Source of the DNA: Eledone cirrhosa
Lineage: Eukaryota
DNA: 64,000 bases
Direction: 5' to 3'
Assembly (NCBI GenBank): GCA_964016885.1
Contig: OZ024740.1
Coordinates: 62,558,001-62,622,000, forward strand
How positions within the stretch are numbered: the stretch's first letter is position 1; the number at the start of each line of letters is the position of its first letter. Of the stretch, positions 1,687 through 59,518 are shown piece by piece. The notes below the pieces were generated by a model that did no database searches, had not been told where the DNA came from, and saw only the letters and a program-made list of their open reading frames with translations. Made by a program: the position numbers and the translations under genes.

Positions 1687-1806
1687 TTATTCTGATGAAA
1701 TGACAGTAAATAATAACATTGAAATATTGAATGTCTGCATAACTAAAAGTTTGTAGATAGCAGCTGTTTTAGGTTATGTAACTGTTATAGAAACACGTGT
1801 CAATAA
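1687..1806 (+). ncRNA. Type I hammerhead ribozyme, family F1, large branched stem II
   Basis: ttatt-CTGATGA-a-atgacagt...actgttat-a-GAAAC-acgt-GTC-aataa; stem I ttatt/aataa; predicted cleavage after 1801. Confidence 0.85.
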
Positions 1807-3649: not shown

Positions 3650-3720
3650 TATTTTATTATGCGCATTTCAAAAACAAATATCATCATGGGATGATATCTG
3701 CGTTTTCATCAAATAAAATA
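3650..3720 (-). ncRNA. HHR family F2, core variant (TTGATGA)
   Basis: Reverse complement of the 4931 motif with a C-to-T change in the core. Confidence 0.7.
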
Positions 3721-13362: not shown

Positions 13363-14008
13363 GTAAGTATGTTTTGAAACAGTGAGCAGGTTTGAAATTA
13401 GAAAATAGAATAGCTTTCACCGTAATTTTGACTAAGGGAATTTTAGCCTGATAATGGGGTTTAGAACCCTCAGATAAATGGAAAAAGATGAGTATTGACG
13501 TACATGGGAGTCGAACCCACATCTTTGGTTATCGCGACCACTGTGCTACCATTACACCAACACATCACCCATCTCTTTCCATTCAAATTAGAAGCTACAT
13601 TCTTAGCGAGTTTAAATGGCAAGTAATTATGTTTTGAAACAGTGAGCAGGTTTGAAATTAGAAAATAGAATAGCTTTCACCATTTATCTGAGGGTTATAA
13701 ACCCCATTATCAGGCTAAAATTCCTTTAGTCAAAATTACGGTGAAAGCTATTCTATTTTCTAATTTCAAACCTGCTCACTGTTTCAAAACATACTTCCTT
13801 GCCATTTAAACTCGCTAAGAATGTAACTTCTAATTTGAATGGAAAGAAATGGGTGATGTGTTGGTGTAATGGTAGCACAGTGGTCGCGATAACCAAAGAT
13901 GTGGGTTCGACTCCAATGTACGTCAATACTCATCTTTTTCCATTTATCTGAGGGTTCTAAACCCCATTATCAGGCTAAAATTCCTTTAGTCATAATTACG
14001 GTGAAAGC
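13363..14008. mobile_element. 260-bp unit containing a tRNA-like cloverleaf, in partial-tandem plus inverted arrangement, bounded by (TA)n
   Basis: gttttgaaac at 13371 and 13631; catttatctg at 13681 and 13941; orientation flips at ~13680. Confidence 0.82.
13855..13925 (+). ncRNA. tRNA-like cloverleaf (repeat-borne; second copy 13496-13566 on the minus strand)
   Basis: Acceptor gatgtgt/gtacgtc, D arm gtgt-aatggta-gcac, anticodon arm tggt-cgcgata-acca, T arm gtggg-ttcgact-cc(a/c)at. Confidence 0.7.
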
Positions 14009-19523: not shown

Positions 19524-19842
19524 ACACACACATACATATAAATATTTATACACGCATATATATATATACGTATATACATATATACACGCACCACAGACCC
19601 TCCATCTCAATTCTACTTTTGAAAAGCAGAAGAACTGCGAAACCGGTAAAGAAACCAAATAAATATATATATATTAAAAAAAATAAGACTCCAGTTGCAT
19701 TTTCGATTTCATCTTTTATTCTTTATACTTATATTTATAAGGACTGCTGGCCTTTCGAATCTAGCAGTCTCTTTAACGCTGAAGGAGACCTTCACTAATT
19801 TATTAATGTCGATGTAATTTTTATATCGATATTATTTGGGCA

Positions 19843-19966
19843 TCCACTGATGAGTTTATAAGATCTGGCTTGTGTATAAGACTATGGATTATATACAAGT
19901 TTCTACATAACCTGGACATTATTTATCCCAAATTGTAGAAATCTTATAACGAAACGATCGTCTGGA
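19843..19966 (+). ncRNA. HHR F5 with multibranch stem II
   Basis: tcca-CTGATGA-g-tttataagat...atcttataa-c-GAAAC-gatc-GTC-tgga; internal hairpins cttgtgtataa/ttatatacaag and ttctaca/tgtagaa. Confidence 0.86.
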
Positions 19967-20166
19967 AGGAAAGAGATATTTATTTAATTATGTCTCATAT
20001 AAAACAATACAACCAGCTAGCCACGAAATACTGATTTATTAGCACCCCAAACACTAAATTGGGAGAACACTTAGGTATATCCTAATGTTTGTTGAGTGAG
20101 ATGGAGTTGGTCAGAGTATCGCTTAAGGTTTTCTCTGTTAATGTATTAAATATATATATATATATA

Positions 20167-23025: not shown

Positions 23026-23108
23026 ACTTCCAACTAATTAGTTTCTGGAATGGAGTAAATATATTTTCCGAAGAAACATATAGAAAATCATTCCGTCATC
23101 AGGAAAGT
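23026..23108 (-). ncRNA. HHR F8
   Basis: actttc-CTGATGA-c-ggaatg...cattcc-a-GAAAC-taatta-GTT-ggaagt. Confidence 0.85.
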
Positions 23109-25051: not shown

Positions 25052-25166
25052 TCTCTGATGATATGGAATCGATTGTGCATTGCATGTCGAATGCTCTACT
25101 AACTATATAATATTATAGATGCAGCGAGATCTAGGCAAATTGATGTCTATTGAAACGTACGTTAGA
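25052..25166 (+). ncRNA. HHR F9 with large stem II
   Basis: tct-CTGATGA-t-atggaatcgatt...aattgatgtctat-t-GAAAC-gtac-GTT-aga, followed by aataaa and then (TA)n. Confidence 0.78.
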
Positions 25167-25300: not shown

Positions 25301-25455
25301 TTCACTATTTAACGATCGTTTCTAGGGCATATATGTGTTATAATTGGTATGCATATTTAACAGATCTATGTACAAAATTATACAAAATTATACAAATTAT
25401 CAAGATTAAATATACATACCTAACTCATATATACGCCGTCTTCAGAAATAATGAA
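25301..25455 (-). ncRNA. HHR F10
   Basis: Reverse complement of 30851-31005. Confidence 0.83.
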
Positions 25456-28615: not shown

Positions 28616-30550
28616 TTAATTAGGTTTATAATATTTAAATGTTTTTTTTAGTTTATGATTACACGATATAATTAATTCCTGTCTTTTATTTAATAAGATA
28701 TCCCTAGACTTCATTATTTCAAATAGTTCTTGGGAACATAATCTACATTCCTTTCTATTATTTTGATAAGGGGTGGCTCTTTTGAGCACACTCCAGGTCA
28801 AATCATATTTTATATTTTTATTTTTATAACTATTGATTTTTTCTGCTAGAGATGTTGTATTAGCCAGTGCGGCATTTTTAAAGCTATGTTTGTGGGTATT
28901 ATACCTTGTCTTAAAATTGTTAGAGGTAGCTCCTATATATGAGCAAATAGAATCTTTAGTTTTAACATTACATTTATAGACTATGTTGTTAACAAGACAA
29001 TTCCCTTTTAATGGGCAGTTTGTTTTGTTTCTACAGTTACATCCTTTCGTTAATTCTGTATTTGAGGAGATATTATTGTTAATTTGATGTACTGGTGGTA
29101 TACTTATGGTTTTCTTACATTTATATGCATTATATGCACTTATATTTTGTTTTATGTTATTTGTTGTAGAGTATGAGAATTTAACTGTAGACCTATTTAA
29201 GATTTGATGGTATTTGTGGTTTGGCGGGAAGTTTTTCTCAAGGATATAAAAAAATTTTTTAGCAATATTATCCTTAACTTGTAAATTAAAAGGAGCATTA
29301 TACCAAGTAACTCGTCTATTACGGTTTCTATGTTGTTTATTATTTTTATTATTTTTATATGTTGTATCATGATTTTTACTAGGAGGATTAATGTTAATGA
29401 TCTCACCACAACTATTTTTAGTTATATTTGTAGATTTAGGTGTTTTATCTTTTTTATTAGGAGTTTTATTATTAATATTTATTATAGTCGTATGATGAGT
29501 AGTTTTTTGAGGGTTACTATACTTTATATTAGAAGATTTAGTATTTTGGGGTATACTGTGGGTGGCATTTAGGTGTGTACTTTTCATTTGGTGTTTGTTG
29601 GTAATATTATGCTGTATGCTTTCAGTATTTTTAGTAGAAGGTATATACTCTAATCTATTTTTGTGGCCACTTCTATCTAGAGCTTCATTATAAAAGGTCG
29701 CATTTTTATCAAATACATCTTGGTTAGAAGAAAGGTTAGAAATTCTAAGTGATATATTATATGCAAGGTTTTTAAGGATAGATTTAGGGTGATTAGATTG
29801 TGAGTGTATGTAATGTAAGTTTTGGTTAGGTTTATGGTAAGGTTGGTATATACCCGTAGCTAAATCTAAAGTTATATCTAGGAAATTTACTACTTTACTT
29901 GTTTTTTCAAAAGTAATATTAAGATTATAATAGTCTTTAAGGAAAGTTCTAATATGCTTTTTGTTTTTTTCGATTTCTGAAAGGCTAAGGTTGTTAGAAA
30001 GAAGAAGACAGTCATCACGATATAAACCACCTTTGAGGTGGGGAAAAGAGGCATTTATGTTGAAAAGGAGAAAGAGGCCCACAAGATCAGTAATTTGGGC
30101 GGAATCGCTTGAACCCATAGTAATATCAAAAAGATTACTGTAAGTGTTTCTGGTCCAGTATTCATTCTGAAATTCAATAAGTGTTTGTCTAGCATGTGTA
30201 ATAATGTTAATGTCATCCGAAGTTAAATTAGATCTATTTTTAGCAAATATTAATGCTTTGTTCAGGAGTATGGGTGATATAGAAGAATAGTAATTATCTA
30301 TATCAAATTGTAGGAAAGAAGCAGAAGATTTACACCTAATATTTTTAAACCAATTAATTACCTGGGAGGTGTTTTCCCAGAGTGGTAAAATAACGTATTT
30401 TCTTATTTGTGGGATGACTCTATCTAAAATTTTTTTGCTAATTATTCCAATATCTGATTTGGAGGGACATATAAGTCTAATAGAAGGATTAGAGTTAAAG
30501 TTAGATTTGTGATCGTTCGTGGTTATGTGTATATTTATGCATATACGCAC
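28616..30550 (-). CDS. PLE RT + GIY-YIG, open but N-truncated (first ~12 codons come from the inverted repeat)
   Basis: DHK..IRLICPSKS, FLQFDI, MGSSDSAQITDLVG, GLYRDD, NFLD, WYNAPF, CNCRNKTNCPL, YIGAT..FKTRY, CRLC..LLNKRQE. Confidence 0.93.
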   Translation of the reverse strand: MRICINIHITTNDHKSNFNSNPSIRLICPSKSDIGIISKKILDRVIPQIRKYVILPLWENTSQVINWFKNIRCKSSASFLQFDIDNYYSSISPILLNKALIFAKNRSNLTSDDINIITHARQTLIEFQNEYWTRNTYSNLFDITMGSSDSAQITDLVGLFLLFNINASFPHLKGGLYRDDCLLLSNNLSLSEIEKNKKHIRTFLKDYYNLNITFEKTSKVVNFLDITLDLATGIYQPYHKPNQNLHYIHSQSNHPKSILKNLAYNISLRISNLSSNQDVFDKNATFYNEALDRSGHKNRLEYIPSTKNTESIQHNITNKHQMKSTHLNATHSIPQNTKSSNIKYSNPQKTTHHTTIININNKTPNKKDKTPKSTNITKNSCGEIININPPSKNHDTTYKNNKNNKQHRNRNRRVTWYNAPFNLQVKDNIAKKFFYILEKNFPPNHKYHQILNRSTVKFSYSTTNNIKQNISAYNAYKCKKTISIPPVHQINNNISSNTELTKGCNCRNKTNCPLKGNCLVNNIVYKCNVKTKDSICSYIGATSNNFKTRYNTHKHSFKNAALANTTSLAEKINSYKNKNIKYDLTWSVLKRATPYQNNRKECRLCSQELFEIMKSRDILLNKRQELIISCNHKLKKTFKYYKPN

Positions 30551-30850
30551 ATGTATGTGTGATTATACTGATATGTGTGAGTATGAAAAAAATATATTTA
30601 TATGCTTGACTCCATAAGTATCTTTGCGTATCTTATCAGCGCATTAAGCTTACAGAGATATTAACCTTGAAATTTTGTGTTTGCATCCATCTTTTTAGTA
30701 TACACATACAAATTATACACACATTATTGTAAAATATGTGTAAGGTTTTTGCATGTGTATACACACACCAAACTGCTTTTAACCCTTTGTGTTTTCATTG
30801 GTCAATTTTGAACTGATATTTTGAATTGTTGTTATTATCAATAAATATAC

Positions 30851-31005
30851 TTCATTATTTCTGAAGACGGCGTATATATGAGTTAGGTATGTATATTTAA
30901 TCTTGATAATTTGTATAATTTTGTATAATTTTGTACATAGATCTGTTAAATATGCATACCAATTATAACACATATATGCCCTAGAAACGATCGTTAAATA
31001 GTGAA
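30851..31005 (+). ncRNA. HHR F10 with ~115-nt stem II
   Basis: ttcattattt-CTGAAGA-c-ggcgtatat...atatatgcc-cta-GAAAC-gatc-GTT-aaatagtgaa; inner helix ggtatgtatatttaa/ttaaatatgcatacc. Confidence 0.85.
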
Positions 31006-41212: not shown

Positions 41213-41644
41213 CTGTCATATACTATCCCCTCTCTTCTTCCTTTCTTACAACTAATATAAATACTTCAATTTTTCTGATTTTTTCCAATTTATCCAATGT
41301 CTCTGAAGAAGTGACAACTGATTATACATTTGCTATCGAATACTTGCTAACATTATATGATTACGCAAGCAGCGATACATAGGTATTCTGTCTGTTACAG
41401 AAACATATGTCAATACCTAATAAATTCCTTTATGAAAGCACTTTCATTTTATATTCATCTTTTCTACATTTTCTCCGGAATATAATTTATACTCGTTGAG
41501 CAAACCTACACGTACGCTGTTCATCTCTAACGTGACGATATATTATCACCACATTATTGATAACTTGAAATTTTATATATATGTATATATATATATATGT
41601 GTATATATGTATATATATATATATGTATATATATGTATATATAT

Positions 41645-59184: not shown

Positions 59185-59518
59185 GATAAATCTACCAAAA
59201 GTTTACGGTAGTGTCCAATCCGTATGAAGAACTCAATGTAATCCGGATATCATGAAAAGAAGAGATGCATTCAAAAATCACTTTCGGTGAAAGATAAACG
59301 GAATACAGAGTCAAGATAAATTATTAAAAAAATAATGAATAAACAAAGAAACAGTTCCTTATATTAAACAAAAAAAGTTCATTATTTTACGATCGTTTCT
59401 AGGACATATATGTGTTAGAATTGGTATGCATATTCAAAAGATCTATGTACAAAATTATACAAACTATCAGAGAGAATATACATACCTTCACATATATATG
59501 CTGTCTTCAGAAATAATG

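Follow-up and report, generated by a model that had tools for sequence, protein, structure and literature searches.

A hammerhead motif with a conserved, branched stem II domain and a predicted pseudoknot brace in a repeat of Eledone cirrhosa

The hammerhead ribozymes of animal retroelements are minimal in the published accounts we draw on. In File S2 of PMC8557442 the Hydra entries all have stems of 3–7 bp and loops of 3–10 nt, and the longest stem II in that file belongs to a plant element, with 9 bp and a loop of about 34 nt. The 64,000-nucleotide stretch of the Eledone cirrhosa genome that we analysed (the window) holds hammerheads whose stem II is 82–116 nt long, in contrast to the short ones of the Hydra entries in File S2. 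What is a domain of this size doing on so small a ribozyme, and is it a conserved structure at all? We concentrated on one copy, family F5. Our preferred reading, towards which we lean without great confidence, is that it is a hammerhead in a non-coding repeat probably copied by Penelope enzymes, and that its branched 97-nt domain would scaffold a GCCC/GGGC brace that aids self-cutting.

The F5 copy has the CUGAnGA, GAAA and NUH core elements in type I order, and the helices around the core are three, with covariation support. The stem II domain spans 97 nt up to the GAAA at 19951 and opens as a three-way junction (Table 1). The initial annotation had already seen stem II open into two hairpins, and folding bears this out: the isolated domain was branched in all 500 sampled structures (100%), with z = -3.95 against 100 dinucleotide shuffles. 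The stem II that it drew is also present, but the "AT/AT" end that it gave to this helix exists only in the window copy, whose letters there are TCTG, against GCCC in the family.

Table 1. Positions of the hammerheads and their parts in the window.
Feature	Position	Strand	Remarks
Complete type I hammerhead, F5	19843-19966	+	Core, three stems, GUC
F5 stem I, 5' strand	19843-19846	+	Pairs with 19963-19966 (4 bp); compensated in lineages B, G and D
F5 core CUGAUGA	19847-19853	+	
F5 stem II, 5' strand	19856-19863	+	Pairs with 19942-19949; 5/8 pairs changed on both sides; 97.7% of cells paired
F5 junction strand, unpaired	19864-19867	+	GCCC in the family, TCTG here; predicted pseudoknot partner
F5 hairpin IIa of the three-way junction	19869-19899	+	7/10 pairs changed on both sides
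F5 hairpin IIb	19902-19939	+	Outer helix 6 bp, internal loop, inner helix 3 bp
F5 GAAA, palindromic stem III and GUC	19951-19962	+	Predicted cut 19962/19963
GGGC, predicted pseudoknot strand	19838-19841	+	5' flank of F5 stem I
F5-bearing unit copy, subfamily A, 5'-truncated	19729-20152	+	About 425 of about 765 nt; runs to the 3' end fixed in the family, with (TA)n after it
Fixed 3' end of insertions, then (TA)n	20129-20152	+	Inferred start of reverse transcription
F1 hammerhead, 91-nt unbranched rod stem II	1687-1806	+	907 nt past the end of a Hydra-type endonuclease ORF
F9 hammerhead, 90-nt rod stem II	25052-25166	+	After a Hydra-type ORF; homologous to F1 and K
Family K hammerhead, 90-nt rod stem II	41303-41411	+	Homologous to F1 and F9; abundant genome-wide
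F10 hammerhead, 116-nt AU-rich rod stem II	30854-31001	+	In an inverted 5' copy of a Hydra-type element
F10 sense-strand copy	25311-25445	-	Downstream of ORF 28616-30562
F10 relative, 104-nt rod stem II	59385-59510	-	

We gathered 108 distinct F5 copies, grouped them into 13 clusters and arranged these as eight lineages (A–H). Identity between lineages is 67–91%, except for D at about 50%, and the domain spans 95–97 nt in every lineage, the one at about 50% identity included. Unconstrained RNAalifold on 11 sequences recovered stems I, II, IIa and III, and both sides changed in 17 of its 30 pairs; in place of IIb it picked another small hairpin. Under the named structure, pairs formed in 89.7% of 429 cells, as against 34–48% in slid controls, where a cell counts a sequence and not an event, and the three D rows are one lineage that inflates the counts. 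In IIb, two of the six outer pairs and one of the three inner pairs changed on both sides of the named structure.

The lineage table gives separate compensations in B, in C/E/H, in B/G and in D. Stem II goes from A-U to G-C in B, IIa from U-A to C-G in C/E/H, and a GGA/UCC helix becomes GGU/ACC in B/G; the pair that closes the junction swaps between A-U and U-A among lineages, and D has many compensations at its low identity. IIb of D has a mismatched outer helix and a longer inner helix, and IIb is the less certain of the two arms. The comparison of lineages shows helices I, II, IIa, IIb and III to be maintained through compensatory changes, which supports the earlier suggestion that the insert is a conserved, structured accessory domain.

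The same branched shape had been proposed for three other hammerheads in the window, F1, F9 and F10. Their spans were right (91, 90 and 116 nt), but their shape was not: P(branched) was 0.00 for each, and all three are irregular, unbranched rods. The two-hairpin fold drawn for F1 came to -19.2 kcal/mol under constraint versus -26.8 for the rod, 7.6 worse, and its second hairpin is partly deleted in a natural variant (L273) that keeps the rod. F1 and F9, which had been called unrelated, align with each other at z 4.4–4.6 and both match family K at z 4.2–7.1 (150 shuffles). F5 and F10 are not clearly similar to F1/F9/K, nor is F5 to F10 (z up to 2.1), and a further family, M, is only marginally similar to the F1/K/F9 rods (z 1.6–2.8). 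A model of F5 scores F1, F9 and F10 at 12.5–15.6 bits and a hammerhead with a 27-nt stem at 23.4 bits. The idea that four unrelated families converged on one branched domain is not supported, since only F5 is branched and F1 and F9 share ancestry. Because F1, F9 and K are homologous while F5 and F10 are dissimilar, we believe that the long stems are lineage-specific expansions with at least three architectures. A joint fold of F1, K and F9 gave a weak nested rod with changes on both sides in 6 of 17 pairs; joint RNAalifold of F1, K, F9 and M, which align poorly, gave no structure.

On their motifs, the F1, F9, F10 and K hammerheads belong to coding Penelope elements of Hydra type. ORFs 293, 23925, 28616 and 15942 have C-terminal GIY-YIG, CxCx5C linker, CxxC and CxH motifs, as read from the translations; Pfam gave no hit for these ORFs, which are 38–51% identical to one another. 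The Hydra-type hosts of F1, F9, F10 and K are inserted at (TA)n. A Hydra-type ORF lies upstream at 13 of 20 F1 loci, 12 of 20 F9 loci and 5 of 10 K loci, and a hammerhead lies downstream of 9 of the 28 ORF positions checked, some of which are not true ORF ends. The hammerhead of ORF 15942 has a stem II of 31 nt. F1 is a very young family that may still be active, since all 40 full-length copies scored (among 810 candidates) are 100% identical.

Stem II could instead be a tolerant insertion site, one that grew by slippage and duplication and was selected only to fold off the core. Spans of stem II in the genome do form a continuum from 14 to 116 nt, rods of unrelated sequence exist, and F10 in the window has a short tandem duplication that is missing from its relatives. 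However, F5 is fixed at 95–97 nt and keeps its junction topology down to about 50% identity, and it also keeps GCCC and GGG in its unpaired strands. We think that tolerant growth is an improbable explanation of the F5 domain.

In four of the rods (1699–1789, 25062–25151, 41310–41399 and locus L292) we saw by eye a bulged A that precedes U-G and U-A pairs, together with a second A-bulge or an A-G internal loop. The bulged-A element is a candidate protein-binding motif. This bears on another explanation, in which the F5 domain chiefly gives the Penelope RT-endonuclease or a host protein a place to land, for chaperoned folding or for recruitment of the non-coding RNA in trans, and in which the hairpins matter and the pseudoknot does not. 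The F1, K and F9 rods share the bulged A and the U-G and U-A pairs while the flanking pairs vary (again by eye), F5 keeps IIa, IIb and the internal loop of IIb across lineages beyond what a 4-bp brace needs, and PMC11167929 describes the hammerhead of the PAc element as protein-assisted. On the other hand, F5 has no sequence or fold in common with the hammerhead domains of the autonomous families, and its insertions end about 185 nt away, hence the domain is unlikely to be the priming site. A protein landing site is a possibility that we take seriously and would not favour. A further reading, speculative and in our view unlikely, is that the Penelope-like elements of this genome and their parasites made stem II a modular docking platform of 50–116 nt (a pseudoknot-braced three-way junction in F5, rods with the bulged A in Hydra elements), with a separate retrotransposon protein reading each form.

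Long-stem hammerhead cores occur far above chance in the 3.0-Gb genome, with 464 matches versus 10 in the control in one pattern search and 5,665 versus 50 in another. The F5 query alone returned 2,062 candidates, of which the 40 scored were 96–100% identical. A conserved domain roughly double the length of the ribozyme proper is present in thousands of copies in this genome. We discarded a pattern for 60–90-nt stems with other forms of stem III (173 versus 23 in the control), as its matches were mostly noise, tandem arrays and decayed repeats. A hammerhead descriptor, which misses imperfect copies, had 0–2 hits in 200 kb beside the window and 35–43 in 600 kb of spread samples. Two single-copy candidates elsewhere in the genome (L297 and L302) have unrelated stem II domains of 102–103 nt that are predicted to be branched.

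The initial annotation expected that standard descriptors with short stem II limits would miss such ribozymes, and Rfam does: it gave 0 matches at the gathering score at 12 of 12 loci. No Rfam hammerhead was among the 150 of 269 window matches that were listed. Since Rfam found none of the tested copies, hammerhead censuses in such genomes are probably undercounts. The long stem alone is not the cause, because a tandem locus of short-stem hammerheads (L127) was missed too. L127 and L130 are arrays of a 310-nt repeat with a canonical hammerhead of 14-nt stem, 11 units in the case of L127, and from their sequence they are a classical retrozyme; at the gathering score Rfam misses the hammerheads of both.

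The 3' end of F5 copies is fixed, at about 185 nt beyond the cut, and is mostly followed by (TA)n, while their 5' ends vary. These are Penelope-like ends with (TA)n targets. In partial tandems the 3'-end site runs on into the next unit with a period of about 765 nt. We observed F5-type tandem periods of 701–702, 714, 743, 759 and 989 nt, of which the 701–702, 743 and 989 nt tandems belong to sister subfamilies, and each unit has a complete type I hammerhead. The longest ATG ORF was 34–57 aa in eight tandem spacings of such units, and no Hydra-type ORF lay upstream at any of 110 F5 loci. With 0 of 110 loci having such an ORF, as against F1, F9 and K, and no ORF above 57 aa, we take F5 to be a non-coding, retrozyme-type unit that likely depends on Penelope enzymes for its copying. 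We found no autonomous partner, and the monomer matched none of the autonomous families among the loci compared. Locus L014 (1480–3172) is a mixed tandem of two subfamily-B units and then a subfamily-A unit at equal spacing, which suggests template switching or targeted insertion between subfamilies.

The F5 unit resembles the metazoan non-LTR retrozymes described in PMC7229834 and bioRxiv 10.64898/2026.07.22.740005, which are tandem units of low GC that code for no protein, hold a single type I hammerhead apiece and are thought there to depend on Penelope-like elements. It also resembles them in its monomers, dimers and multimers, and its unit length is near their reported 51–972 bp. It differs in having a three-way-junction stem II of 95–97 nt and a predicted Watson-Crick brace where the retrozymes in these accounts have a short hairpin.

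The brace is our candidate for what the domain does. The strand directly after stem II reads GCCC in F5 and is predicted to be unpaired, and the flank before stem I reads GGGC. The junction strand likely pairs with this GGGC in a predicted pseudoknot, which would likely take the place of the usual loop I–loop II contact. A tertiary-contact module was one of the functions first suggested for the insert, and it has gained a concrete candidate here. PMC3088659 reports Watson-Crick pseudoknots between stem I and stem II as a tested booster of activity in other hammerheads. Some copies in lineages G and D have GGGU instead of GGGC, a G-U variant of the helix, and a GGGY..core..GCCC pattern matched 4,140 times in the genome versus 84 in the control.

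The pairing is conserved and uncompensated within the F5 family: a GCUC variant of the junction strand has only 42 copies, with GAGC upstream in 1 of the 42, in a search that covered one substitution class. Two pseudoknot pairs that appeared to change on both sides in the covariation count were due to an alignment shift of lineage D, and we dropped them. An alternative pseudoknot, between an upstream AUUUGGG and CCCAAAU in IIb, was rejected as it is absent in lineage D. Geometry provides a point against the brace, with 8 bp in the F5 stem II as against 4–5 bp in stem I.

We scanned 36 representatives for a flank helix with the same geometry. A helix of 4–8 bp with a mostly unpaired partner was present in all five F5 lineage representatives and, with different letters, in 8 of 9 families that have a 49–64-nt stem II, although this set was chosen from families already found in the analysis. 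The partner strands have mean unpaired probabilities of 0.64–0.99, and the letters across families include GGAAAA/UUUUCU, GAGAA/UUCUC, GAGAAG/CUUCUC, UGAGUU/AACUCG and AGAAU/AUUCU. For any single family the shuffle P for flank pairing is weak (0.02–0.60), and the helix was not seen in the F1, K, F9 and F10 rods. The families with a 49–64-nt stem II and this type of pseudoknot are at 23102, 23627 (-) and 49207 (+) in the window and at loci L027, L094, L129, L149, L193 and L226.

The copy in the window has lost the brace, because it reads TCTG at 19864–19867 where the family contigs assembled from two public runs read G, C and C at the three changed places, at about 99% or more of the depth. Truncated and without GCCC, this copy is probably weakened or dead. 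Since such a pseudoknot has no need for two hairpins, IIa and IIb may do more than brace.

In the reading we prefer, the F5 tandem repeat would be transcribed, and the branched stem II domain would keep the GCCC strand unpaired and free for the GGGC before stem I. The pseudoknot, in place of the loop I–loop II contact, would help the RNA to cut itself after the GUC (19962), probably in dimers formed by way of the palindromic stem III. Unit-length or circular RNA would form, with the whole stem II domain at the 3' end of the cut monomer, and reverse transcription would begin about 185 nt past the cut. With the fixed 3' end of the insertions that far beyond the cut, priming inside the domain is unlikely, and so is the earlier suggestion that the insert is a priming signal for the RT.

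A folding switch that silences the ribozyme in the circular monomer and lets it act in multimeric transcripts would give the domain another function. The predicted circular 765-nt monomer keeps the three-way junction while the core and stem I pair elsewhere (one sequence, MFE), and IIb has its alternative small hairpin. However, the monomer fold is a single prediction without control or pseudoknots, a single branched fold dominates in the isolated domain, and according to PMC4209133 control of this kind already comes from the dimer-dependent stem III. We consider a switch highly improbable, and continue with the brace.

Cutting is consistent with the cut-site triplets, which are GUC, GUA or GUU across the lineages and GUG in none. 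Locus L004 starts exactly at the predicted cut. Judged by eye, 22 of 28 truncated copies have their 5' end at or after the cut (among 100 of 532 listed, with 2 internal deletions set aside), as do 12 of 13 in a second set (among 100 of 116 listed, with 1 internal deletion set aside). Few of the listed copies begin precisely there: 2 clear and 1 doubtful of the 28, and 1 of the 13 within 1 nt. The excess of 5' ends downstream of the cut could come from (TA)n microhomology or from stalling of the enzyme at structure. For the PAc element, PMC11167929 reports insertion in vitro without need of hammerhead cutting and no reads ending at the cut. Three truncated subfamily-B copies (C1:76617136, C1:204500220 and C2:39911910) begin some 5 nt ahead of the cut and carry an extra C; this may be a short inverted copy of the cut end.

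Penelope elements and retrozymes are already known to carry hammerheads, and the palindromic stem III and pseudoknot braces are known as well. As described in PMC4209133 and PMC8557442, the hammerheads of Penelope-associated and Hydra-clade elements share with ours the type I order, a short stem I, a stem III that is palindromic, an additional base where stem II begins, (TA)n targets, and partial-tandem and inverted insertions. The pseudoknot-braced hammerheads of PMC3088659, predicted in all three types, are like F5 in that non-canonical loop contacts give way to a helix of 4–6 bp linking the regions of stem I and stem II. In that account stem II is typically very short, whereas in F5 the partner strand sits 8 bp out, within a multi-helix junction, and the predicted F5 brace differs in using the 5' flank of an open stem I. 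The permuted type-SGC hammerheads of PMC10085705 are also elaborated, in that an extra helix connects stems I and II, but the strand order of F5 is that of an ordinary type I. Hammerhead variants with additional helices have been reported (PMC13725137). We found no natural, conserved, branched stem II of about 95 nt in the literature covered, outside which lie Lunse et al., Weinberg et al. 2015, Hammann et al. 2012 and some supplements.

The F5 lineages, at 50 to 99% identity, are a ready set of natural variants with which to ask how a tertiary brace, or an accessory domain, adjusts a slow, dimer-dependent ribozyme. They could likewise inform what the hammerhead does for Penelope-like elements.

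More hammerhead-like motifs, from several families and with a stem II of 4–36 nt, are present in the window at 3712, 4939, 8885, 10360, 13238, 14514, 22060, 32082, 38952, 44437, 44528 and 55366. Two tRNA-like matches above the Rfam gathering score, at 13496–13566 (-) and 13855–13925 (+), lie inside an inverted repeat and are probably SINE heads.
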